Shown here: piece after piece, positions 132-62,764 of the stretch
How the letters are laid out: the number at the start of each line of letters is the position of its first letter
Numbering within the stretch: the stretch's first letter is position 1
Source of the DNA: a virus
Lineage: Duplodnaviria; Caudoviricetes
Reading direction: 5' to 3' (one strand)
Virus record (IMG/VR): IMGVR_UViG_3300036985_003045
Length of the DNA stretch: 64,000 bases
Position numbers and translations under genes: made by a program
The notes under the pieces: generated by a model
The model's database searches: none
Told to the model about the DNA's origin: nothing
What the model saw: only the letters and a program-made list of their open reading frames with translations

Positions 132-1118
132 TCATATTGCTATTGGTGCTTTAATAGTTGGGTGATAATTGTATTTTTGTAAGTCATAAGATTCAATAGT
201 GAAATCATCAATAGAATGATACTTTCTATCAATGACCAACTTAGGCAATTTGTATTCATATAAATCTCTACTCAATAGTTCATTAGCTTGTTCAATATGG
301 TTCTTGTATAGATGCACATCACCAAAAGAGATATGTAATCTATCAGGAATCATATCCACAACATTAGCAATCATTTCTGTTAATAATGCATATGAAGCAA
401 TGTTAAAGGGTAATCCCAAAAAGGTATCACAACTTCTCTGATATAAATGACAAGATAAAGCATATCTTGGTGTTTTCATATCATCCATTATCTTGTGATA
501 TTCTTCTTCATAATATTCAGATGGTTGAATATCAGATGGACAATATTTGGTTCTTTCAAAAAATGATAACTTCCTAACACCAAATTGAAAGAACGCATGA
601 CAAGGTGCTAATGCCATTCTATCATTAATAACATTTTCTTGTGGTGACCAGTGTTCATAGGGTATATCAGCAACATTCCAAGCAGATACAATATGTCTAC
701 GACTAAATGGTCTTTCTATTAATCCTTCAATAAGATTATCAATTTGGTCAACATTAGATTCACCATCACACCACCACTTTCTCCATTGGTATCCATAGAT
801 TGGTCCAAGGTCTCCATCTTCATCAGCCCATTCTTCCCAAATGGTTGGTTTATCATTACCATTCATTCTTCTTAATTGTTCATTATCTGTAGAACCAGAT
901 AAGAACCAAAGTAACTCATTAGCCACCAATTTGAATGGAGTAAACTTTCCTGGTAGTAATGGAAATCCTTTCTTTAAGTCAAACTCAAGATGCTTACCGA
1001 ATAGACTTAAAGTTCCAGTACCAGTTCTATCATCTGAATCATTACCGTCTGCTAATAGTTCCTCAAGCAAACTATAGTAACGGTCCATAGGTCTATCCAT
1101 TGGTTCTATATCGTTCAA
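132..1118 (-). CDS. thyA: thymidylate synthase (ThyA/td type)
   Basis: DRTGTGTLSLFG, ELLWFLSG, GPIYGYQWR, catalytic PCH, YQRSCD and LGLPFNIASY motifs; TTG start overlapping the upstream TGA. Confidence 0.97.
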   Translation of the reverse strand: MNDIEPMDRPMDRYYSLLEELLADGNDSDDRTGTGTLSLFGKHLEFDLKKGFPLLPGKFTPFKLVANELLWFLSGSTDNEQLRRMNGNDKPTIWEEWADEDGDLGPIYGYQWRKWWCDGESNVDQIDNLIEGLIERPFSRRHIVSAWNVADIPYEHWSPQENVINDRMALAPCHAFFQFGVRKLSFFERTKYCPSDIQPSEYYEEEYHKIMDDMKTPRYALSCHLYQRSCDTFLGLPFNIASYALLTEMIANVVDMIPDRLHISFGDVHLYKNHIEQANELLSRDLYEYKLPKLVIDRKYHSIDDFTIESYDLQKYNYHPTIKAPIAI

Positions 1119-2767: not shown

Positions 2768-2775
2768 TATAAATA
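2768..2775 (+). promoter_or_regulatory. T4-type late promoter TATAAATA
   Basis: exact TATAAATA, followed by an AGGAGG RBS and the ATG at 2794. Confidence 0.85.
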
Positions 2776-2793
2776 GTAGTATAAGGAGGGGTT

Positions 2794-3090
2794 ATGGATA
2801 TTGGAATACCTAATTTTGATTTTTTTGGTTTGGTACAGCAATGTGGATTTCCCATAGCTTTGGCTGTTGTATGTGGTTGGTTTATTATGCAAGCCATAGA
2901 ACTGGTGTTAGGTTCAGTTGTTAAATCTATTAAAAAACTGACAGGATTACTTCGGTCTATGGATGGTAGAGTTAGTCAAATGAACGTTGATATACTTGAT
3001 TTGGATGACCTGGTATCCCAATCATTAATAGTAGAATCTTTACCTAAAAAGATACATCATCAGGTGCATCAAGAAATGAACAAGTCATGA
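2794..3090 (+). CDS. small membrane protein, YvrJ-like (paralog 1)
   Basis: QQCGFPIALAVVCGWF TM segment followed by a heptad region. Confidence 0.7.
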   Translation: MDIGIPNFDFFGLVQQCGFPIALAVVCGWFIMQAIELVLGSVVKSIKKLTGLLRSMDGRVSQMNVDILDLDDLVSQSLIVESLPKKIHHQVHQEMNKS

Positions 3091-3371
3091 ATCCGGAATA
3101 TGTAAAGTTTTTTTCGGATGTATTAACTCCAATATTAGCATCTTGTGTTTTGGGTAGTTTTATATTCACAGCACTTAAGTTTGTTTTGGGTGATGTTATA
3201 ACTTCGGTTAGAACACTGGCATCAATTGTAATGGCTCTGGAGAATAGAGTTAAAACTTGTTCTCACGAACTTATTAAGATTGATGTTACTATATCATCTG
3301 TACTAGGACTTAGACCAGATTTGGATAGAATATCCAGAATGGATGGTAAGAATGATGCTAGGAGAGATTAA
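3087..3371 (+). CDS. small membrane protein (paralog 2)
   Basis: N-terminal TM plus LENRVKTCSHELIKID heptad like its neighbours; ATGA overlap. Confidence 0.7.
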   Translation: MNPEYVKFFSDVLTPILASCVLGSFIFTALKFVLGDVITSVRTLASIVMALENRVKTCSHELIKIDVTISSVLGLRPDLDRISRMDGKNDARRD

Positions 3372-3634
3372 TGGATGTTACAGAAATAGGTAATCTCATA
3401 CAACAATATGGATTTCCAATTGTTGCGGCTGGATACATGTTAAAGATGGTAAAATATGTTTGGTCATTTACTATTGAACAGATTAATCCAGTATTAGGTG
3501 AAGCTTCAAAAGAATTGATTACTTTAATTGATAGAATACGATTATTGGATAATGATTTATTGAGACTTACTGCGAAATTGAATACCGTATTGCAGATGCG
3601 TGAAAATGCTCAGAAACAAAAGAATGAAAAATGA
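3371..3634 (+). CDS. small membrane protein, YvrJ-like (paralog 3)
   Basis: QQYGFPIVAAGYML and LIDRIRLLDNDLLRL segments. Confidence 0.7.
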   Translation: MDVTEIGNLIQQYGFPIVAAGYMLKMVKYVWSFTIEQINPVLGEASKELITLIDRIRLLDNDLLRLTAKLNTVLQMRENAQKQKNEK

Positions 3635-4062
3635 AAACTATAATCTTATTACTGTTTATGTTCAGCAATGTCCAAGCAGAACAAAGTTTTTCGTTTAAAT
3701 CTCCAGCATTTAGTGGTATAGGATATTCTTCACATGTTCAAACAATAGAAAATACTGAAACTACTAGAAAACAAGCATTAGAGGCACAGAAATTACAAGA
3801 TGCCAAGGATGCTTCAGCATTAGCTAAGAACACTAATCTTAATAAGTTTCTGAATAACTTTGAAAGTCGTGTTTATGCTCAATTATCAACTCAATTGATT
3901 AACAACTTATTTGGTGAAAATCCAAAGAATAGTGGAACAGTTCAGATTGAAGGTAATACTATAACGTATACCAAGACAGCTGACCAAATATCAATGACTA
4001 TTACTGGTGCAGATGGTAATGTAACACAAGTAATAATACCTGTCGGTAGTTTTACATTCTAA
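3631..4062 (+). CDS. csgF: curli assembly protein CsgF-like
   Basis: signal peptide; FSFKSPAFSG N-terminus; FLNNFESRVYAQLSTQL and ITITGADG..TQV segments typical of CsgF; directly before csgG. Confidence 0.85.
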   Translation: MKTIILLLFMFSNVQAEQSFSFKSPAFSGIGYSSHVQTIENTETTRKQALEAQKLQDAKDASALAKNTNLNKFLNNFESRVYAQLSTQLINNLFGENPKNSGTVQIEGNTITYTKTADQISMTITGADGNVTQVIIPVGSFTF

Positions 4063-4850
4063 TGCGTATTATAGTATTATGCCTATTATTAACAGGATGT
4101 TCTGGTGGTATATTAACTCCCTTTAATGTATTCACTAATGAACCAGAAGTATTAGCAATAAATGAGAAACGAGAAACAATTCTACCTGCCCCTAAAGATG
4201 GTAAAGTAGTTGTTGCGGTATATTCATTTTTGGATAAGACAGGTCAAAGAAAAGATTCTGCTACTATTGCAAAATTATCATCTGCTGTAACACAAGGGGG
4301 TGAATCTATATTATTAAAATCATTGGAGGATGCTGGTGATGGTATGTGGTTTAGGGTTGTTGAACGAGTTGGTTTAGATAATTTATTAAAAGAACGACAA
4401 TTGATTCGTTCAGCGAGAGATGAAGCAAAGGATGATAAACAAATAGGTTCGATTCTTTATGCTGGTATGATACTTGAAGGTGCAATAGTATCATATGATA
4501 CCAATATCAGAACTGGTGGTATTGGATTAAGATATATGGGAATAGGACCCGATACACAATATCAGGAAGATATGGTAACTGTATCATTGAGAGCTATTAG
4601 TACACAAACTGGTGAGGTATTACTCACTATTAATGTACAGAAAACAATATTGAGTTATACAGTAGGTGTTGCTGTATTTAAGTTTTTTGATATGGGAACA
4701 CAATCATTCGAAAATGAAGTTGGTGCTACTAAGACTGAGGCAGGAATATATGCATTGAAATCGGCATTAGATTTAGCAGTTGAAGAATTAATTATTAAAG
4801 GTGAAAGAAAAAGATTATGGAAATTTTCAAAAACTTTTAGGAATAATTAA
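4062..4850 (+). CDS. csgG: curli secretion channel CsgG-like lipoprotein
   Basis: lipobox LLLTGC; VAVYSFLDKTGQRK, SSAVTQG, WFRVVERVGLDNLLKERQLIR, LEGAIVSYDTN, VTVSLRAISTQTGEVL. Confidence 0.95.
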   Translation: MRIIVLCLLLTGCSGGILTPFNVFTNEPEVLAINEKRETILPAPKDGKVVVAVYSFLDKTGQRKDSATIAKLSSAVTQGGESILLKSLEDAGDGMWFRVVERVGLDNLLKERQLIRSARDEAKDDKQIGSILYAGMILEGAIVSYDTNIRTGGIGLRYMGIGPDTQYQEDMVTVSLRAISTQTGEVLLTINVQKTILSYTVGVAVFKFFDMGTQSFENEVGATKTEAGIYALKSALDLAVEELIIKGERKRLWKFSKTFRNN

Positions 4851-5561
4851 ATGAACATCATAAGAAATCTATTACTGTTTGTTATGCTTACAGTAATAAA
4901 TCAATCATCAATAGGAGATAGTGGTGGAAATTCTGTATACATTGACCAGACTAATGCAGATAACTCTACTGTAAATATTACACAAACAGGTGCAAATAAT
5001 ACTGTAGGGGACCCAGATTCTATTGGTTCACCATCTTTTCAAATAGAAGGCAACTCTATGTTGTTTACTATTATTCAAGATGGTATGAACAATGCTATAA
5101 CAGGTAATCTTATTGGTGGTGGAGCAACTGCTGATATTACTCAAACTGGTAATAGCAACTCTACTGATTTAAATATGGGCAATATGGGTACTGGTTCAGG
5201 TACTTTAAGTTTGGATTTAACAGGTAGTAATAATACAACTAATCTTAATATTGGATTATTGCATGATTCTGGAAACTATTCATATCTTTCAACTATTACT
5301 GGTAGTAATAACATTTTAACTAGCACTATTAATAGTAAATACACTGAGAATACTTTTATAGTAACGGGGTCTGGTAATGCAATCACAACTACTCAATCTG
5401 GTGCTAATGGCACTAATCTTATTGCTGGTAATAATATCGCCATATCCAATATTGGAAGCAATAATACCATAGGGATTAGCCAAGATGGAACAACGAATCC
5501 AAATTCGGCTATTGTCAATCTTACTGGTGATAATGCTATTGTTAATATCGAGCAACATTAA
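4851..5561 (+). CDS. curlin-repeat protein (CsgA/CsgB-like)
   Basis: signal peptide, then N/G/T/S-rich repeats with a Q.G..N / TG.NN pattern (ITQTGANN, IIQDGMNN, ITQTGNSN, LTGSNN, ITGSNN, TQSGAN). Confidence 0.8.
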   Translation: MNIIRNLLLFVMLTVINQSSIGDSGGNSVYIDQTNADNSTVNITQTGANNTVGDPDSIGSPSFQIEGNSMLFTIIQDGMNNAITGNLIGGGATADITQTGNSNSTDLNMGNMGTGSGTLSLDLTGSNNTTNLNIGLLHDSGNYSYLSTITGSNNILTSTINSKYTENTFIVTGSGNAITTTQSGANGTNLIAGNNIAISNIGSNNTIGISQDGTTNPNSAIVNLTGDNAIVNIEQH

Positions 5562-6543
5562 GGCTGGTATAGGTTCAATAACAGAACATAAAGGTAATGC
5601 TTCTATTACAAGAGAGAAATCAGTATTAGAAGCAAAGAAGGATTCAAGTATTGATTCTATGGATACCATTGAAACTGGTAAAGGTGAAGTGGGTATATCT
5701 TTTGAGGATGATACTCAAGTAAAGGTAACAGAAAATAGTAAATTGGTTATAGATGATTTTGTCTATGACCCCAATAATAAAAGTGTTGGTAAATTGGCAT
5801 TGAAATGTGCTATAGGTACTGTAAGATATGCTTCAGGTAATATAGCACATGCTAATGCCAAGAATGTTGCTATCAATACACCTACAGCAACCATAGCAGT
5901 ACGGGGTACAGCATTTACCATGACTGTAGATGAAATTGGTCAGTCAATGATTATATTACTTCCAAATTTAGATGGGAGTGTTGGTGAGATTGAAGTTAGA
6001 ACTGCTATAGGTTCTGTTGTATTGAATCAAGCATTTCAAGCAACAGTAACGACTTCAAATGAAATTAAACCAACGAAACCAGTGGTGTTATTGATTAATG
6101 AATCAGCTATTACTAATATGATGATAGTAAAACCACCAAAAGAGATTACACAAAAACTAATTGAGGATAACAAATCAGGTTCAGCATTAGATTTTAATGG
6201 ATTAGATAAAGATGCATTATCAGTAAGAGTTTTTATAGACCCATTTGCAAAATTTAATGAATTAAGTGTTGATGCATTATTGATAGATTATTTAATAAAT
6301 GCTTTAGAAGATGCATTTTCAGTAGGTACATTTGCTGCTGGATATAATTCACAGAATCAAGTTTATATATTTGATAAGCAAACAAATTGGCAAGTCCAAC
6401 GAACAGTGAAACAAAGTGCTACATTATTACTTAACAAAGACCGTGGTTACAATATAACATTAGTACAAGATGGGACAACAGTGAAATTACAAAGTGCAGA
6501 TACAACCACTAATAATATTTCAATAAAACAAGGAGCAAACTAA
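5485..6543 (+). CDS. secreted FecR-domain protein (likely start ATG 5533)
   Basis: D.I.TG.G.V.I.FEDDTQVKVTENSKLVID and TPTATIAVRGTAF FecR-type motifs; signal peptide from M17. Confidence 0.85.
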   Translation: MEQRIQIRLLSILLVIMLLLISSNIKAGIGSITEHKGNASITREKSVLEAKKDSSIDSMDTIETGKGEVGISFEDDTQVKVTENSKLVIDDFVYDPNNKSVGKLALKCAIGTVRYASGNIAHANAKNVAINTPTATIAVRGTAFTMTVDEIGQSMIILLPNLDGSVGEIEVRTAIGSVVLNQAFQATVTTSNEIKPTKPVVLLINESAITNMMIVKPPKEITQKLIEDNKSGSALDFNGLDKDALSVRVFIDPFAKFNELSVDALLIDYLINALEDAFSVGTFAAGYNSQNQVYIFDKQTNWQVQRTVKQSATLLLNKDRGYNITLVQDGTTVKLQSADTTTNNISIKQGAN

Positions 6544-6821
6544 TGGCAATAGCTAAGAAAGAAGAAAAGAAAGAAGATTTTATGACATCAAAATGGCGAC
6601 CAATGATGGCAATATCATATATGGCTATTTGTTTGTTTGACTTTATGGCAGGTCCAATTCTATACAATGTTCTCCAGTATATGAATCCTGGACAACATCT
6701 AGAAATGTGGCAAGCAGTTACATTACAAGGTGGTGGGTTATATCATCTATCAATGGGTGCTATTATTGGTATTACTGCTTTTGGTAGAACTAAAGAGAAA
6801 TTAGCAGAAACTACTGAATAA
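6543..6821 (+). CDS. holin, 3TM GTA-type
   Basis: WRPMMAISYMAICLFDF...TLQGGGLYHLSMGAIIGITAFGRTKEK pattern of the 3TM holin family. Confidence 0.75.
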   Translation: MAIAKKEEKKEDFMTSKWRPMMAISYMAICLFDFMAGPILYNVLQYMNPGQHLEMWQAVTLQGGGLYHLSMGAIIGITAFGRTKEKLAETTE

Positions 6822-6915: not shown

Positions 6916-7110
6916 TTTTTACCTATTGAGAATATAACAAGTAACTTCAAATCCTAATCTGATATCTTTATAAGTCGGTGTTTTCCACTTCATCTTGTTC
7001 TCCTAATTTATACATAAAGTCTAAGAATTCCTCAAATGTCAGACCTCCTGGCATTGAATAGAATGTACATTCAACAGATTCTTTCATTCTTTCTAAATCA
7101 AAATTCATAA

Positions 7111-9159
7111 TTACTTACTGGTGGCTACAAAAGTTCCCTTCCATTTCTTTGGAAAAGATTCATCAGACATATATCCTGTTATTCTTTTAGTCATCATATC
7201 ATAATAATAATCTAATTCACCATCAAATGAACCTTTCAATTCCATGCAATGTGTAATGGCATATGCCCATTCTTGTTTCTTATAATGCTTAAACATCTTA
7301 TTATGTAATGTTCTAGTATTGGCATATTCTAAACGATTGTATCTATCTGGTTGTAATACTGTATAAATGTCTAATCCAACAGTTTTACCTTTTACAGCAA
7401 TGTTGTCTAGCTTAATAACAAAGTATTCATCTTTAACAAGTTCAGCAGTTTCTGGACCAATGATTAATAATACCCCATAAGATTTGGTTTGGCCTTCCAA
7501 TCTTGCAGCTGTAGAAACTGAATCACCTAATACATCATATCCAAATCTAGTTTTTGAACCTATGTTACCTATAAGTGTTTGTCCAGTATTAACACCAGCA
7601 CCCATACCGACAATTGGTTTACCTTGTGCTATTAGAGTTTCATTAAATCCATTAACAGATTCAATCATTTCTAATGCGGTTTTAACAGCAACCTTGGCAT
7701 GGTTTACATCATCTAGTGGTGCATTATGTACATGAAGACTAGCATCACCAATGAACTTAATGATACATCCATCATTCTTCAATACTGGTTCTGATATGGC
7801 AGTCATATAATCATTCATAATATTGGTAAGACCTTCTACATCATCACCATAAGATTCACCAAGAGTGGTAAATCCCCTTAAATCTGTCATAACAATAGAA
7901 AGTTCTTTGCGTTCACCACCAAGTTTAATCAATTCTGGATTCTTCTGAAGCTTTTCTACCATGATAGGAGAAACATAGGAACCGAATTGTTTTTTAATTT
8001 GAAGTTTTTGTCCTAATTCAGATAGAAACTTTACGGTGTATGTGTGCCCATAGACCGCAACAATTGCGAATATAGGTATTGTAATGTCGAAAAGATAATA
8101 AAGAGTGGTATATAGATAATTAGAAATAGGATAAAGAGAGATAATGATGCTGCAAAATATAAGAATTCCATATTTCCACCTAGATAGTATTATTGATATT
8201 AATGAAAGAAAAAGTATTGTTAATAATTCTGCACCTGTAGTCCAATCAGGTCTTGATATATTTATACCTTTGGTAATAGTATCTAGAATTGATGCTTGAA
8301 TGTAATGAGGAAAGACTGCTCCATTAGAAGTCGCAACGGGGTTATTAAGTCCTTTTGCTGTGAGTCCGACAATAACGATTGCTCCGTTGAAGTCATTTGG
8401 TAAATTGACGGATGAAAATTGTCTAAATCCTGCGGGTTTAATCCAAAGTCTACCGAGGTCATCTGTTTGGATTTTACCGAACTTTGGTATTCTAACTGCT
8501 TGGATTGACCCTTCGTTGATTTTGACTTGGAATGATGGGTCTCCTGATGCCACACGCAAGGTTTCGAGACTGATACTCGGATACAATAATCCTTTGGAAC
8601 TGACCACCATTGGGATTCTTCGGGTAACGCCATCAATTTCTGGGAGTGTATTAACAACACCAATACCAGCAGCATTATCATTGAAAACTTGTATGTTGGG
8701 AAGTATGTTTTCATATTTAACTCCTACATCACCAGTACCTATAACTGATACACCTGGTCTAAATGGTTTATAAGTTTCAGTAAAAGCTTCATTAGTACCA
8801 GTTTGAGGTAATACTACTGGATATTCTTGAAGTACTTGTGTTAATGTATCATCTTTATCAAATCTATCTGCTTCAGGCATAAACAGATTAAAAACAACAA
8901 GACCAGCACCACGGATATACAGCTCCTTAATAAGATTAGCATATTCGTTCCGAGGGAATGGGAATTGACCTTTTTCTTTAAGTGTTGCATCATCTATATT
9001 TACCAATTGTATATCTGATTGTTGAATATCTTGGGTTAAAAGAGTATCAAAATATCTTAAACGAATAGATTCTACAAATGATGGGTCAACTACTCTTAAC
9101 CCAATGATTAAACCTAATGTTACTAACGATAACCATGGGGACAAGAATAGTTTTTTCAT
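7111..9159 (-). CDS. CHASE2-domain class III adenylate/guanylate cyclase
   Basis: N-terminal TM; CHASE2 (NIDDATL..GQFPFPR, DGVTRRIPM); three TMs; cyclase motifs VMTDLRGFT, IKFIGD, GVNTG, GYDVLGDSVSTAARLEG. Confidence 0.95.
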   Translation of the reverse strand: MKKLFLSPWLSLVTLGLIIGLRVVDPSFVESIRLRYFDTLLTQDIQQSDIQLVNIDDATLKEKGQFPFPRNEYANLIKELYIRGAGLVVFNLFMPEADRFDKDDTLTQVLQEYPVVLPQTGTNEAFTETYKPFRPGVSVIGTGDVGVKYENILPNIQVFNDNAAGIGVVNTLPEIDGVTRRIPMVVSSKGLLYPSISLETLRVASGDPSFQVKINEGSIQAVRIPKFGKIQTDDLGRLWIKPAGFRQFSSVNLPNDFNGAIVIVGLTAKGLNNPVATSNGAVFPHYIQASILDTITKGINISRPDWTTGAELLTILFLSLISIILSRWKYGILIFCSIIISLYPISNYLYTTLYYLFDITIPIFAIVAVYGHTYTVKFLSELGQKLQIKKQFGSYVSPIMVEKLQKNPELIKLGGERKELSIVMTDLRGFTTLGESYGDDVEGLTNIMNDYMTAISEPVLKNDGCIIKFIGDASLHVHNAPLDDVNHAKVAVKTALEMIESVNGFNETLIAQGKPIVGMGAGVNTGQTLIGNIGSKTRFGYDVLGDSVSTAARLEGQTKSYGVLLIIGPETAELVKDEYFVIKLDNIAVKGKTVGLDIYTVLQPDRYNRLEYANTRTLHNKMFKHYKKQEWAYAITHCMELKGSFDGELDYYYDMMTKRITGYMSDESFPKKWKGTFVATSK

Positions 9160-9167
9160 ATTATATC

Positions 9168-9944
9168 CTAGAATAAATCTGTAAAGAATTTAGAAACAGA
9201 ATCTAGAAAATCATCATCTTTCTCTACTGCTTCTGTATCAGGTATGGCAACTTCTTCTAATACAATAGGAGCAATAATTGCAGCAGCTACAGCAGGTGCT
9301 ACGACAGCAACCGGAACTGGTTTAGAAAATACATCTTCATCAATAGCACTTAATGCGATATCATAATGATGTTGTCTGTCTTTCAAACCAATAGTACCAC
9401 CATTAATTCTTTTAGTTAATGTAGTAAATTCACTAGAATCACAGAATTGATTTAGTTTATTAGTTTGCCAGAAGAATGCACCTGAACAAATAGCACCCTC
9501 TAATGTTTCACAATATGCAACAGTTTCATCTAATGATTTACCAATAGACTTTGCAAACTTTGAATAGTTATCTTTACCAGTTAATTGAATACAACCACGA
9601 CCACGGAATTTGAAACCATCTCCAGATGCTTCTGTTCCATTACCCATTCTATCAGCATAAACCTTGTTTGCAATCTTTTCTGGATTACGATTATAAGGAG
9701 CAGCCATTGCAACAGAGATAAATCTTTTTGGCCAAACTTTACAAAGACCATCAGCAGAATAATTAAGATTCTCTTTTAATGCTGTAAACTGAGCAGATTC
9801 ATGCCCACATTGAGCCAAGAAAGCAGCAACTCTTTTCTTGGTATTAATTTCATATTCAGGTAGAACTTTATTAAGAACCTCAAGTAATGCTTCGGGTTGT
9901 TTATTGTTCGGGCAAATCTTTTTCAGTTGTTCAAGTTTTAACAT
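9168..9944 (-). CDS. glycoside hydrolase family 19 endolysin
   Basis: AAFLAQCGHES, ENLNYS, YADRMGNG, FRGRGCIQLTGKDNY, TKRINGGTIGLKDR. Confidence 0.92.
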   Translation of the reverse strand: MLKLEQLKKICPNNKQPEALLEVLNKVLPEYEINTKKRVAAFLAQCGHESAQFTALKENLNYSADGLCKVWPKRFISVAMAAPYNRNPEKIANKVYADRMGNGTEASGDGFKFRGRGCIQLTGKDNYSKFAKSIGKSLDETVAYCETLEGAICSGAFFWQTNKLNQFCDSSEFTTLTKRINGGTIGLKDRQHHYDIALSAIDEDVFSKPVPVAVVAPAVAAAIIAPIVLEEVAIPDTEAVEKDDDFLDSVSKFFTDLF

Positions 9945-43927: not shown

Positions 43928-44004
43928 TGGTCTCCTATGAAGGATTTGAACCTCCGACCCTTCCGCCCCAAACGGAATGCGCTACCAGACTGCGCTAATA
44001 GGAG
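43928..44004 (-). tRNA. trnP: tRNA-Pro(TGG)
   Basis: cloverleaf, anticodon loop TTTGGGG, encoded CCA. Confidence 0.95.
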
Positions 44005-44010
44005 AAAAAT

Positions 44011-44085
44011 TGGCGGTTCTAATGGGAATTGAACCCATCTCTACGCTGTGACAGAGCGTTATACTAACCAATATACTATAGAACC
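44011..44085 (-). tRNA. trnD: tRNA-Asp(GTC)
   Basis: cloverleaf, loop CTGTCAC, encoded CCA. Confidence 0.93.
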
Positions 44086-44091
44086 TAAAAT

Positions 44092-44166
44092 TGGTGTCCC
44101 TAATGAGATTCGAACTCATGTTATTGGATTGAAAGTCCAATATCCTAACCGCTAGACGATAGGGAC
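44092..44166 (-). tRNA. trnE: tRNA-Glu(TTC)
   Basis: cloverleaf, loop CTTTCAA, encoded CCA. Confidence 0.95.
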
Positions 44167-44173
44167 ATAATTT

Positions 44174-44248
44174 TGGAGCTCCCTACCGGAATCGAACCGA
44201 TTTATGATGATTACAAGTCAACTGCATCGCCACTTATGCTTAGGGAGC
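44174..44248 (-). tRNA. trnT: tRNA-Thr(TGT)
   Basis: cloverleaf, loop CTTGTAA, encoded CCA. Confidence 0.92.
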
Positions 44249-44507
44249 AAACTATTTAAATGTACTTATACGTAATTAGGAACTATCTCCATAGGTAACC
44301 TAATCAATTACAAATACATTTAAGAAAACACACTAGCCTTACGATACCCCATTTCTGGCTCCAGCAGTTAGACTCGACTCAGTAGGTCTATCTAATGTGT
44401 TTTATTAAAATTAGAGGCGTAATTCAGGGACTCTTACCCCACCATTGTTCCAGTAAAACCGCCCTACTGGTAGTGCCTTACTTTTCGGGTAATTAATCCG
44501 ATTAATT

Positions 44508-44581
44508 TGGAGCGGGATATCAGAATCGAACTGATGACAGAAGTTTGGAAAACTCCAGTTTTACCATTAAACTAATCCCGC
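44508..44581 (-). tRNA. trnG: tRNA-Gly(TCC)
   Basis: cloverleaf, loop TTTCCAA, U discriminator, encoded CCA. Confidence 0.95.
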
Positions 44582-44586
44582 AAAAT

Positions 44587-44661
44587 TGGCTCCTTGAGAT
44601 GGGCTCGAACCACCGACCGGACGATTAACAGTCGTCTGCTCTACCACTGAGCTATCAAGGA
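44587..44661 (-). tRNA. trnN: tRNA-Asn(GTT)
   Basis: cloverleaf, loop CTGTTAA, G discriminator, encoded CCA. Confidence 0.95.
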
Positions 44662-60529: not shown

Positions 60530-62764
60530 TTATTTCCTAGTAAAGTTTTTATGTGATAATCTTTCTTTTTCAGTTTGACGAACTCTAGATGTAAGTTTCA
60601 TAGCCATACGACTTAAAACAGGTTTTTTCTTTTCTATAATTCTATCAATTCTTTCTCTTTCAGATGTAGCCAAAGTAGAAGAATCTCGACCTTTTAGTAA
60701 TTTTTTACGCATTAAACTAATTGCAAGGTGACGTGCTCTTTTATTTATCTTTTTTGAATCTGAATGCTTCTTCAAAGCTAACATTCTTGCACGATCAATT
60801 TTAGCTCTATTCTTGGAAAATCTTAATCTTGCTTTCATTCTTTCAATTTTAGAAAGAACTTCCAGTAAAGTTTCTTCTTTAATTGGTTTATCTTCTTCAT
60901 CTGGTTCGCCCGTTTCAGCATCAACAACTTGAAACTCGTCATCATCATAAGCATCAAGAATATCTTCATGCTCTAATGAACCAATCATTTTATCTATTTC
61001 TTCATCTGATTCTTCTTCATCATGTTCACCACATTCTTCTTCATTCATATACTTGACTTTCATTCTGTCAATAGTATCTGAACCTTTTGGTCCAGAAGTT
61101 AGATGAGCTCCAACGTGAGTAATTTCAGATTGACCAACTCCATGTGGAGGAGTGCCTAAAGTTGCATGTCCAGTTGCAGCAAGATTTTCAATCTTTTCTA
61201 CATCATCCTTTGGTAATGGTTTGCCTTTAACAAATGCTTTTGCTTCATTAACCCAAGCAGTATCAATAGGGTTAGGGAAACGTCTTCCATAACGTTCTGC
61301 CCTCTCAGTAGCTAATTGAAATTGTTCTTCAGTTAGATTACTTTTTGAGATATTTTTAATTGCTTTCTTATCATAGTTAATACCAACTTCATCGGCAAGT
61401 TTTAACATTTTAGAAACTATTTTCAAAGAATCTTTATTCAATGTTTTAGTTTTACGTAATGCACTGTTTACCAATACTTCAGCATTACTTGATTTCTCAG
61501 CATCGTCAAACCCTAGAATAGTTGCAATCATTCTAGCAACTTTAAGTTTGTCATTAGTTTTTAATGTTTTGTCTGTTAATTCTTCAGTCATACCATTTGC
61601 CGTTGATGCTCTAAATTGATTAATCATTAGTTCTATTTCAGTTCCATGCATATGCCAATAGTCTAAATGGTGTAGGAAATCTCCATTTCTTTCCAATGCT
61701 TGTTTAGCTCTTAAATGAGCATCTTCCCATTGGTTTAAATCTTTTTCATCAGGAACCTGTTCTTGTTCAAGGTGTTTATCATTAATACCCATATAGATAT
61801 CTGTTGCTTTCAAAGCATTTAAAACAGATACTGGATCATGATCACCGGATATTTTTATAGTTTGTATGAATGCTCTAATAGCATCTTCTGAATGATGAAG
61901 ATTTTTTGTTGTATAACCTTTGAACGTGATTTCAGAAGGTATAGTTCCAGGTTGAATATCTTCAAATAAAGTTTGTTCTGACATTACTACGTCCTGTATC
62001 CATTTTTTACTAGTTTCACCAATTGAGTTTACAACAGTAAGATAATTACTGCCTCTGTCTAATATCTCAAATGGTTCGTTATTTGATTCTACAATATCGC
62101 CAATATTGAATATTTCTTTTTTAAAATATTTTTCTCTGAGTTCATCAACATTTAATTTAATTTGTTCTTTAATAATGTCAAGACCCATTCCTTGTCTAAC
62201 ATCATTCATTAATCGTTTAGCATCAATATCACGTAGTGTGGATGGTAAACCTTTCTTAAAACTTTGATAATCACCTTCAGAAGCTGCCGATCTCATCTTA
62301 GTACCAGACATACCGGAAGCATCATCAGCATCTGGATCTCTTTCGCCGGCTGAAATTACTTGAATAGAATCATAATTGTATTCTTTACCATTATACTGGT
62401 TAAGTAATCTTTCAAAGTCTGAAATGCGATCAGAACCTGCAATCATGACAAGATTTTTATATTTAGAGTTTAATGCTTTCGCAACCTCTATGAAAGTGCG
62501 CTCTGTATCAGTTGCAGGTTTGAAATTGGTATGTGGAAACATTAGATTCAAATAATGAACCTTTTTATCCACAGATAAAGGATTCTTCTTTTTATCTTGA
62601 GTTCTTGAAGCATAGATTGCATAATCTGCTTTATTAGCAGTCGCAATCTTCTTAACTACATTAATAAGTAGTCCATGCCCCGTGGTCGGAGGAGAAAATC
62701 TGCCAAAAGCAAATACAATTGTTTTGGCAGGCATTTCCTTTAGGAATTGTCTATACTGTTTCAT
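60530..62764 (-). CDS. cytidyltransferase-like (HIGH-superfamily) protein with long C-terminal extension
   Basis: FAFGRFSPPTTGH, KKNPL, MIAGSDR, SAGERDPD, MSGTKMR. Confidence 0.85.
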   Translation of the reverse strand: MKQYRQFLKEMPAKTIVFAFGRFSPPTTGHGLLINVVKKIATANKADYAIYASRTQDKKKNPLSVDKKVHYLNLMFPHTNFKPATDTERTFIEVAKALNSKYKNLVMIAGSDRISDFERLLNQYNGKEYNYDSIQVISAGERDPDADDASGMSGTKMRSAASEGDYQSFKKGLPSTLRDIDAKRLMNDVRQGMGLDIIKEQIKLNVDELREKYFKKEIFNIGDIVESNNEPFEILDRGSNYLTVVNSIGETSKKWIQDVVMSEQTLFEDIQPGTIPSEITFKGYTTKNLHHSEDAIRAFIQTIKISGDHDPVSVLNALKATDIYMGINDKHLEQEQVPDEKDLNQWEDAHLRAKQALERNGDFLHHLDYWHMHGTEIELMINQFRASTANGMTEELTDKTLKTNDKLKVARMIATILGFDDAEKSSNAEVLVNSALRKTKTLNKDSLKIVSKMLKLADEVGINYDKKAIKNISKSNLTEEQFQLATERAERYGRRFPNPIDTAWVNEAKAFVKGKPLPKDDVEKIENLAATGHATLGTPPHGVGQSEITHVGAHLTSGPKGSDTIDRMKVKYMNEEECGEHDEEESDEEIDKMIGSLEHEDILDAYDDDEFQVVDAETGEPDEEDKPIKEETLLEVLSKIERMKARLRFSKNRAKIDRARMLALKKHSDSKKINKRARHLAISLMRKKLLKGRDSSTLATSERERIDRIIEKKKPVLSRMAMKLTSRVRQTEKERLSHKNFTRK

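Follow-up and report, generated by a model that had tools for sequence, protein, structure and literature searches.

A putative pelagiphage-type curli secretion module in an uncultured freshwater T4-like phage

Genes related to those of the bacterial curli system have been described in marine phages. Zaragoza-Solas et al. (2020; PMC7029224) found csgF, csgG and associated genes in pelagimyophages, and Buchholz et al. (2022) described csgF/csgG in phage Melnitz and proposed, from the synteny of the locus, a role in lysis timing. The complete module was documented in podo- and myo-pelagiphages by Wittmers et al. (2022; PMC9599517) as one or two small "HK" proteins, CsgF, CsgG, CsgA/B, FecR, at times a second CsgA/B, and an adenylate cyclase; they found it expressed in metatranscriptomes and considered aggregation, superinfection exclusion, sibling capture and import as its possible roles. 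Phage curli modules amount to about 0.1% of assembled ocean viral proteins (Wittmers et al. 2022), and marine phages of SAR11 and OM43 are already known from the literature to carry one with substrate, FecR and cyclase. Here, we analyze a 64-kb stretch of viral DNA, the IMG/VR record IMGVR_UViG_3300036985_003045 (the whole of which we call the window), and suggest that it probably carries a pelagiphage-type viral type VIII secretion (curli) module, in an uncultured freshwater T4-like phage, for which we propose a fiber-export mechanism.

The window had previously been interpreted from its letters alone (hereafter, the sequence-only reading) as containing a translationally coupled plus-strand operon at 2768-6821. 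All eight open reading frames (ORFs) were recovered, tightly packed on the plus strand and with the same boundaries, and profile searches with Pfam and PHROGs provided a family match for each part of the operon. In order, they encode three small membrane paralogs (S1 to S3), CsgF, CsgG, a curlin-repeat protein, a FecR-domain protein and a holin-like protein. The junctions, presumed to be translationally coupled, consist of ATGA, TAATG or direct abutment, except at the FecR gene, whose first ATG (5485) lies 77 nucleotides (nt) inside the curlin gene. Because FecR homologs have mostly 336-344 amino acids, this gene may in fact begin at the ATG at 5533, a likelier start than that at 5485. The features of the locus are as follows:

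2768..2775, plus strand: T4-type late promoter motif TATAAATA, an exact match, 18 nt before the first ATG
2794..3090, plus strand: S1, additional diverged paralog, a small membrane protein with a single pass (phrog_18771, 2e-13)
3087..3371, plus strand: S2, small membrane protein of conserved type A (phrog_18771, 2.2e-23)
3371..3634, plus strand: S3, small membrane/amphipathic-helix protein of conserved type B (phrog_18771, 5.4e-22)
3631..4062, plus strand: CsgF homolog with a signal peptide and an N-terminal CsgG-binding motif (PF10614, 3.6e-15)
4062..4850, plus strand: CsgG homolog, outer-membrane lipoprotein channel (PF03783, 2.4e-53)
4851..5561, plus strand: CsgA-like curlin-repeat subunit with a signal peptide and about 8-9 Q-x-G-x-x-N rungs (PF07012)
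5485..6543 (alternative start 5533), plus strand: FecR-domain envelope protein (PF04773, 2e-8; phrog_37870, 2e-74)
6543..6821, plus strand: holin-like protein with two transmembrane (TM) helices (PF11351, 28.4 bits, partial; phrog_3427 holin, 3e-6)
6968..7108, minus strand: small acidic ORF of 46 amino acids, coupled to the 3' end of the cyclase gene (phrog_17259, 6e-8)
7111..9159, minus strand: CHASE2 receptor class III adenylate cyclase (PF05226, 3.9e-38; PF00211, 2.1e-16; phrog_35576, 1e-236)
9168..9944, minus strand: GH19-type endolysin, 8 nt upstream of the cyclase (phrog_181 endolysin, 8.4e-72; PF00182, 1.8e-6)

The genes and their order are those of the published pelagiphage module, which likewise lacks CsgE, CsgC and CsgD; family searches gave no match to any of these three among the ORFs of the module and its neighbors, in agreement with the sequence-only reading. 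That reading had also mentioned the csgF/csgG pair of Melnitz, and correctly so (Buchholz et al. 2022). However, it took the presence here of a candidate substrate and of a periplasmic partner as a novelty over Melnitz, and this contrast fails because the GenBank record of that phage annotates two curlin-repeat proteins and a FecR-domain protein, as well as the cyclase, and because the whole module, with the same candidate roles, appears in Wittmers et al. (2022); the record of HTVC008M contains a "curlin-associated protein." Methylophilales phage Melnitz and Pelagibacter phage HTVC008M are cultured members of the Kyanoviridae, and both isolates share with the window two small paralogs, CsgF, CsgG, the curlin protein(s), the FecR-domain protein and the cyclase. 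The window differs from the pelagiphage module in its freshwater origin, in a third small paralog, in having a single curlin gene, in a holin-like gene after FecR, and in a cyclase that is inverted and coupled to an endolysin gene. In Melnitz and HTVC008M, by contrast, a second curlin-type gene lies between FecR and a co-directional cyclase and there is no homolog of the holin-like protein. The window CsgG is 42-45% identical to those of these two phages, and in HTVC008M the motif TATAAATA precedes csgF, whereas in the window it precedes the small genes.

The hidden Markov model (HMM) searches that had been proposed for the three curli families all scored above their cut-offs: 181 bits against 20.8 for CsgG (PF03783), 56.7 against 25.8 for CsgF (PF10614), and 27.3 against 20.7 for the curlin repeat (PF07012), of which four stretches were detected. 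CsgG aligns over its full length with its E. coli counterpart (residues 4-256, 2.8e-46). Its lipobox, LLLTGC, had been described as intact, and we can add that the cysteine concerned (Cys13) is invariant in 10 phage CsgGs. A phmmer search of the PDB with CsgF returned no CsgF match. The N-terminal motif F-x-F-[KR]-x-P-x-F-x-G is present (SFSFKSPAFSG in the window), and its P25, F27 and G29 are invariant in the CsgF proteins of E. coli, Hymenobacter and the phages. In the E. coli complexes 6L7A and 6SI7 this N-terminal segment sits inside the CsgG barrel. Sequence comparison indicates that phage CsgF retains the predicted CsgG-binding motif, which argues against the suggested uncoupling of phage CsgF and CsgG. 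The motif is followed, in the phage proteins only, by a charged, helical insert of some 25 residues.

The curlin-repeat protein is the candidate substrate. An alignment of 34 phage homologs displays an invariant Q-x-G-x-x-N ladder, and when the corresponding profile was compared with the whole PDB just two matches were obtained, E. coli CsgA (7e-6) and Pontibacter CsgA (3e-5) (8ENQ, 8C50). The AlphaFold2 model (predicted local distance difference test, pLDDT, 82; predicted template modeling score, pTM, 0.79) is all-beta, with stacked strand-turn-strand rungs, and the best of 48,161 PDB chains compared with it was again Pontibacter CsgA (8C50; Z 19.5, 199 residues aligned, 24% identity). CsgA was detected only by an aligner independent of Foldseek and by the profile search, whereas Foldseek itself found nothing significant for the model in either the PDB or Swiss-Prot. 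The protein is thus predicted to be a CsgA-like beta-solenoid, the outcome that the AlphaFold check suggested in the sequence-only reading was meant to probe. With E. coli curli (csgBAC/csgDEFG) and Pontibacter CsgA the window has in common the CsgG lipoprotein, the CsgF plug motif and the Q-x-G-x-x-N solenoid; it differs from bacterial curli by the absence of CsgE, CsgC, CsgD and a distinct CsgB, by its constriction loop and by the charged insert in CsgF.

The exact TATAAATA in front of the operon had been read as a late promoter. The abundance of the motif was rejected as an argument for this, since the window has 10 copies against 17 expected; such a count proves nothing, and the case for a promoter consequently rests on the conservation of its position. 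When 61 non-identical, diverged related loci were examined for the exact motif, it was found in 42 of them within the 60 nt that precede an in-frame ATG of the leading small gene; the background density predicts 0.02 per locus. Hence, late expression of the operon from a T4-type promoter, as deduced from these sequences, is well supported. An AAGGAGG Shine-Dalgarno sequence lies between the motif and the first ATG, and other copies in the window precede a tail-fiber gene and a head-protein gene.

Contigs from RNA libraries point to transcription of the operon. In two freshwater studies independent of each other they span S1-S3, CsgF and CsgG, and in a third library the cyclase and endolysin genes of a relative; the DNA sequenced from the sample of the first RNA library gives even coverage of the entire stretch. 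In one of the runs (X18, a freshwater metatranscriptome) a 751-nt contig starts exactly at 2794, the first ATG, and ends at 3544, and this start, while a contig end is not a mapped transcript start, is compatible with a 5' end just downstream of TATAAATA. The 100-nt gap upstream of the operon contains early-type and late-type promoters back to back: on the minus strand, at 2708-2735, is a perfect sigma-70 promoter (TTGACA, 16 nt, TG-n-TATAAT) that is directed away from the curli genes. A TATAAATA motif also stands before the minus-strand gene at 60530-62764, which encodes 744 amino acids, including a cytidyltransferase-like domain at the N-terminus; an enzyme of this type would not usually be expected to be expressed late.

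A CsgG-based scan of viral contigs yielded 93 relatives, 80 of which were kept for comparison. In nearly all of these 80 loci the small paralogs, CsgF, CsgG, curlin, FecR and cyclase genes are found in the same order and on one strand. The window belongs to a clade formed by loci L002-L008 together with L082, a 103-kb contig binned as "Luteolibacter." In a quick CsgG tree this clade is monophyletic (support 99), is nested within uncultured viruses, away from HTVC008M and Melnitz, and is separated from the bacterial CsgGs (98). All of the public runs in which the stretch was present, from 12 studies, are freshwater, lake or sediment metagenomes. Zaragoza-Solas et al. (2020; PMC7029224) reported freshwater pelagimyophages without a curli operon, and for this reason the window lineage extends the known range of the module.

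The bacterial CsgG loci of high guanine-plus-cytosine (GC) content that were retrieved (Hymenobacter, Asticcacaulis) contain CsgF and CsgG, and sometimes curlin; next to CsgG, none of them has small paralogs, a FecR gene or the cyclase. On the other hand, the full phage module occurs at a GC fraction of 0.32-0.41 on contigs filed under bacterial metagenome-assembled genomes (L082, L083-L088 and L099), which bear the labels Luteolibacter, Flavobacteriales, Rhodobacterales, Polynucleobacter, Saprospirales, Synechococcus and Bacteroidetes. These low-GC contigs are probably mis-binned phage contigs; L082 itself (CAYWLC010000001.1) has a CsgG 95% identical to that of the window.

Such a distribution bears on one of the alternative explanations, namely that the block is a passenger, captured from a bacterium and persisting in a hypervariable region without any specific role in infection. 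The variable accessory region, the changing neighbors of the module and the fact that the known hosts have no curli genes would all be in accord with this. Nevertheless, the parts are intact and their order is kept at CsgG identities down to 45%, in both myo- and podophages and in both the sea and fresh water; the promoter is conserved; homologs of the FecR protein number more than 6,800 in metagenomes; and streamlined phage genomes seldom retain 6-8 kb of unused genes. We consider a mere passenger to be very improbable. Three parts of the module have no counterpart beside CsgG in the bacterial loci retrieved.

The first of these are the small membrane proteins. S1, S2 and S3 all match phrog_18771 and their HMMs cross-match one another. 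They are proteins of 87-98 amino acids with one TM helix and an amphipathic helix, and their alignment (A6) resolves two conserved orthologous types. Type A, represented by S2, has the C-terminal signature RPDLDRI...DARRD and is present in nearly all loci; type B, represented by S3, is marked by LIDRIRxLDNDLxRL and has weak matches to the "holin" family phrog_4898 (8e-8) and to YvrJ. S1, with a TM segment at residues 21-39 and a match to the S2 HMM at 3e-18, is a third paralog that occurs only in the window clade (L002, L003, L005, L008 and L082). The published label of "histidine kinase" for these small proteins was rejected in view of their size and architecture and of the absence from Pfam searches, at E <= 0.1, of any HisKA or HATPase_c domain. 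A protein-atlas search with S2 returned viral clusters only, one of them carrying an automatic MotA/TolQ/ExbB name, and gave no usable lead.

The second and third are the FecR-domain protein and the cyclase. The former matches PF04773 with 35 bits (cut-off 24), while its profile had no match among the PDB sequences. The AlphaFold2 model consists of a membrane helix or signal anchor (residues 2-20), a FecR beta domain and, past a disordered linker, a small beta domain at the C-terminus. Residues 57-213 resemble the cell-surface signaling domain (CCSSD) of PupR (Z 15.7), and residues 26-121 the N-terminal anchoring domain of MpIBP (5IX9; Z 10.6, 26% identity), which served as the template for the LapA retention module, a domain that plugs a TolC-like pore. 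The window protein thus has the periplasmic beta-domain fold in common with the FecR/PupR regulators and with the LapA/MpIBP modules, and differs from them in that protein and locus lack an anti-sigma domain, an extracytoplasmic function (ECF) sigma factor, a TonB-dependent transducer and a giant adhesin body. There is no room for a cytoplasmic anti-sigma domain because the membrane helix begins at residue 2, and neither an ECF sigma factor nor a TonB-dependent transducer was found among the ORFs neighboring the gene; the usual identity of a FecR-type anti-sigma regulator was for that reason rejected.

Both Pfam domains of the cyclase are well above their cut-offs. The two metal-binding Asp residues and the Lys and Arg are kept, and the usual Asn is replaced by Ser in the window clade. 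This position co-varies with an Asp or Thr at the substrate position, and clades differ in which of the two pairs they have, (Asp, Ser) or (Thr, Asn); in alignment A4 (window residues 541-555) the one type reads YDVLGD...VSTAARLE and the other YTCLGD...VNLA[AS]RLE, each being conserved within its clades. The FecR and cyclase genes overlap by 4 nt in 21 loci, while in the HTVC008M-like clades the second curlin gene lies between them and other clades insert unrelated genes there.

Among bacteria, Burkholderiales and Pseudomonas have been described as having operons that combine a periplasmic FecR-domain protein with a CHASE2 receptor, and in S. meliloti such a protein lies with CyaD1 (PMC5192318, PMC5498481); we found the same combination in the bacterial loci L128, L138, L151 and L155. 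A homolog of the cyclase is present in 89 of the 201 alphaproteobacterial genomes sampled, and in five genomes searched with the Pfam FecR model no FecR gene directly adjoined it, apart from a giant ORF with a FecR N-terminus in genome G180. From such comparisons of sequence, the pairing recurs in bacteria without being the rule. The giant ORF of G180 (G180:C62:122-10190), which ends just upstream of a CHASE2 cyclase, is one of several alphaproteobacterial ORFs of 3,356 to 6,679 amino acids that begin with a Pfam FecR domain (others are in G005:C2 and G089:C2). Given the match to 5IX9, the "FecR" domains that open such giant proteins may be adhesin retention modules.

These observations could be taken to mean that the main output of the module is not a fiber: cyclic AMP (cAMP) would be produced by the CHASE2 cyclase in response to a periplasmic or surface cue relayed by FecR, an ungated CsgG would admit solutes or cofactors, and the curlin would be secondary. 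In favor of such a signaling or uptake function, the conservation of FecR and cyclase equals that of the curli genes and translational coupling of the two is frequent, similar operons exist in the bacteria named above, the cyclase keeps its metal-binding Asp residues, Lys and Arg, the two structures that the FecR domain resembles each act in the periplasm on a protein of the outer membrane, no CsgE gate was found, and import was raised as an option by Wittmers et al. (2022; PMC9599517). Against it, there is no known ligand or cAMP target, FecR is uncommonly adjacent to the nearest alphaproteobacterial cyclases, prediction of a FecR-CHASE2 complex was uninformative either way, and the strict conservation of the fiber subunit would be left unexplained. 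As the principal function of the locus we regard it as unlikely. Within the fiber-export reading that we favor, the same two proteins find a place as a sensing component.

The arrangement that distinguishes the window clade concerns the lysis genes. The sequence-only reading counted a 3TM holin among the parts of the module. We find instead that the hydrophobic helices are two, spanning approximately residues 18-44 and 56-80, and that the C-terminal tail is basic, an organization that is the same in the 8 clade members; moreover, the PF11351 (GTA_holin_3TM) match exceeds its cut-off of 24.8 but covers only positions 53-108 of the 123 in the profile, its C-terminal part. The start of the gene overlaps the FecR stop (TAATG). 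Nor is the gene a part of the conserved module: it occurs in 8 of the 80 viral loci and is absent from the other 72, so that it is a clade-specific addition. The GH19 endolysin gene, on the opposite strand and 2.3 kb from the holin-like gene, precedes the cyclase gene in L082 and in five of the clade's viral loci, and does not occur in the module flanks of other clades. The cyclase gene is inverted, and therefore convergent with the operon, in this clade, and co-directional after FecR in all the others; the third small paralog, found in most members, completes the list of features unique to the clade. The 46-amino-acid acidic ORF at the 3' end of the cyclase is kept in L002 and L003 as well.

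Accordingly, one can ask if the block serves to control lysis, as Buchholz et al. (2022) proposed from the synteny of Melnitz: the CsgG/CsgF pore, instead of serving to make fibers, would permeabilize or depolarize the envelope at the end of infection together with the holin-like protein and the endolysin, FecR and the cyclase setting the time. In addition to late expression, the physical linkage just described, with a holin-like gene at the end of the operon and the cyclase immediately behind the endolysin, is what such a role would lead one to expect, as are the weak resemblance of S3 to a PHROG holin family and, in a locus of one marine-type clade (L036:7237-8070, minus strand), a D-Ala-D-Ala carboxypeptidase gene (Peptidase_S11, 7e-39) that is convergent with the module cyclase and abuts it. 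But the linkage of holin-like gene and endolysin is confined to a single derived clade. Among 8 inspected loci from other clades that carboxypeptidase was the only lysis gene in the module flanks, which otherwise hold accessory metabolic or membrane genes. Furthermore, CsgG cannot depolarize the inner membrane because it sits in the outer one, and a role for the pore only would leave both the universal CsgA-like subunit and the retained CsgF motif unexplained. The clade-specific linkage lends the lysis-timing idea modest support; as the general function of the module it seems unlikely.

A more speculative reading centers on the FecR-like protein. As the FecR fold is that with which PupR docks on an outer-membrane transducer and with which LapA/MpIBP plugs an outer-membrane pore, the FecR-like protein might replace the missing CsgE, sit under CsgG and report the state of the channel (occupied, empty or stressed) to the CHASE2 cyclase, with cAMP being wired to the holin-like protein and the endolysin in the freshwater clade. 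The block would then be an envelope-sensing circuit for the timing of lysis and not only a fiber factory. We would give this little credence.

We return to the explanation that appears to us the more probable one, fiber export. The T4-type late promoter would drive a single operon of envelope proteins; the CsgG lipoprotein would form a channel in the outer membrane, into which CsgF would dock by its conserved N-terminal motif; and the CsgA-like beta-solenoid subunit, exported by the Sec pathway, would be secreted through the CsgG pore and polymerize at the infected cell's surface. The co-inherited pair of FecR-domain protein and CHASE2 adenylate cyclase would sense the envelope: the FecR-like domain would probably contact an outer-membrane partner from the periplasm and the cyclase convert the signal into cAMP, with the two or three small membrane proteins as conserved accessory parts. 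Only in the window clade was the holin-like gene added behind FecR and the cyclase inverted and coupled to the endolysin. We infer pore assembly, export, cAMP signaling and whatever benefit the phage may draw from them out of gene content, conservation and predicted folds. The core of this scheme, late expression of an outer-membrane pore and export of an amyloid-like protein, was already in the sequence-only reading, and it fits all the in silico tests that were run; its novelty did not survive, the system having been published.

Several observations weigh against this explanation. The CsgG constriction loop is not conserved, since the YPASNF of E. coli (Y51, N55, F56) is SATIAKL in the window, where even the F that most phage homologs keep at the last position (consensus AKFSS) is L. 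With the curlin HMM we found one curlin gene in the 64-kb window, and no recognizable nucleator of the CsgB type, whereas other clades have a second curlin gene. FecR was found near the closest alphaproteobacterial homologs of the cyclase in only 2 of 20 cases with 6-kb flanks (2 of 30 with short flanks), and the prediction of a complex between FecR (28-352) and the CHASE2 domain (23-308) scored 0.00, a result uninformative either way. DNA carry-over could still be the source of the RNA-library contigs. Finally, cells infected by Melnitz showed no clumping (Buchholz et al. 2022), and the fibers proposed here are deduced from genes and models.

The remainder of the window has some further features of note. 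Divergent from the curli operon, at 1115-2334 on the minus strand, are three small paralogous ORFs (143, 100 and 89 amino acids) that belong to no Pfam family and are interleaved with a 67-amino-acid ORF bearing an N-terminal TM helix; in each paralog a coiled coil separates the N-terminal "E/C-x-TGEWV / DGYWV" motif from a hydrophobic C-terminal tail, which makes these proteins look tail-anchored. Beyond them (132-1118, minus strand) lies a ThyA-type thymidylate synthase gene, the 328-amino-acid product of which is about 60 residues longer than the Pfam profile; in Melnitz the corresponding position is occupied by the flavin-dependent ThyX. Six tRNA genes (Pro, Asp, Glu, Thr, Gly and Asn) are clustered at 43928-44661, also on the minus strand.

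Phage curli modules would provide hosts that have no curli of their own with an entirely new envelope structure. To what was known of them the window adds that the module circulates also in freshwater T4-like phages, that it is under a conserved late promoter and that a single lineage has brought it into physical linkage with lysis genes. The kind of system remains the same, and the window clade constitutes a natural variant with which the fiber and the lysis-timing hypotheses may be tested against each other.

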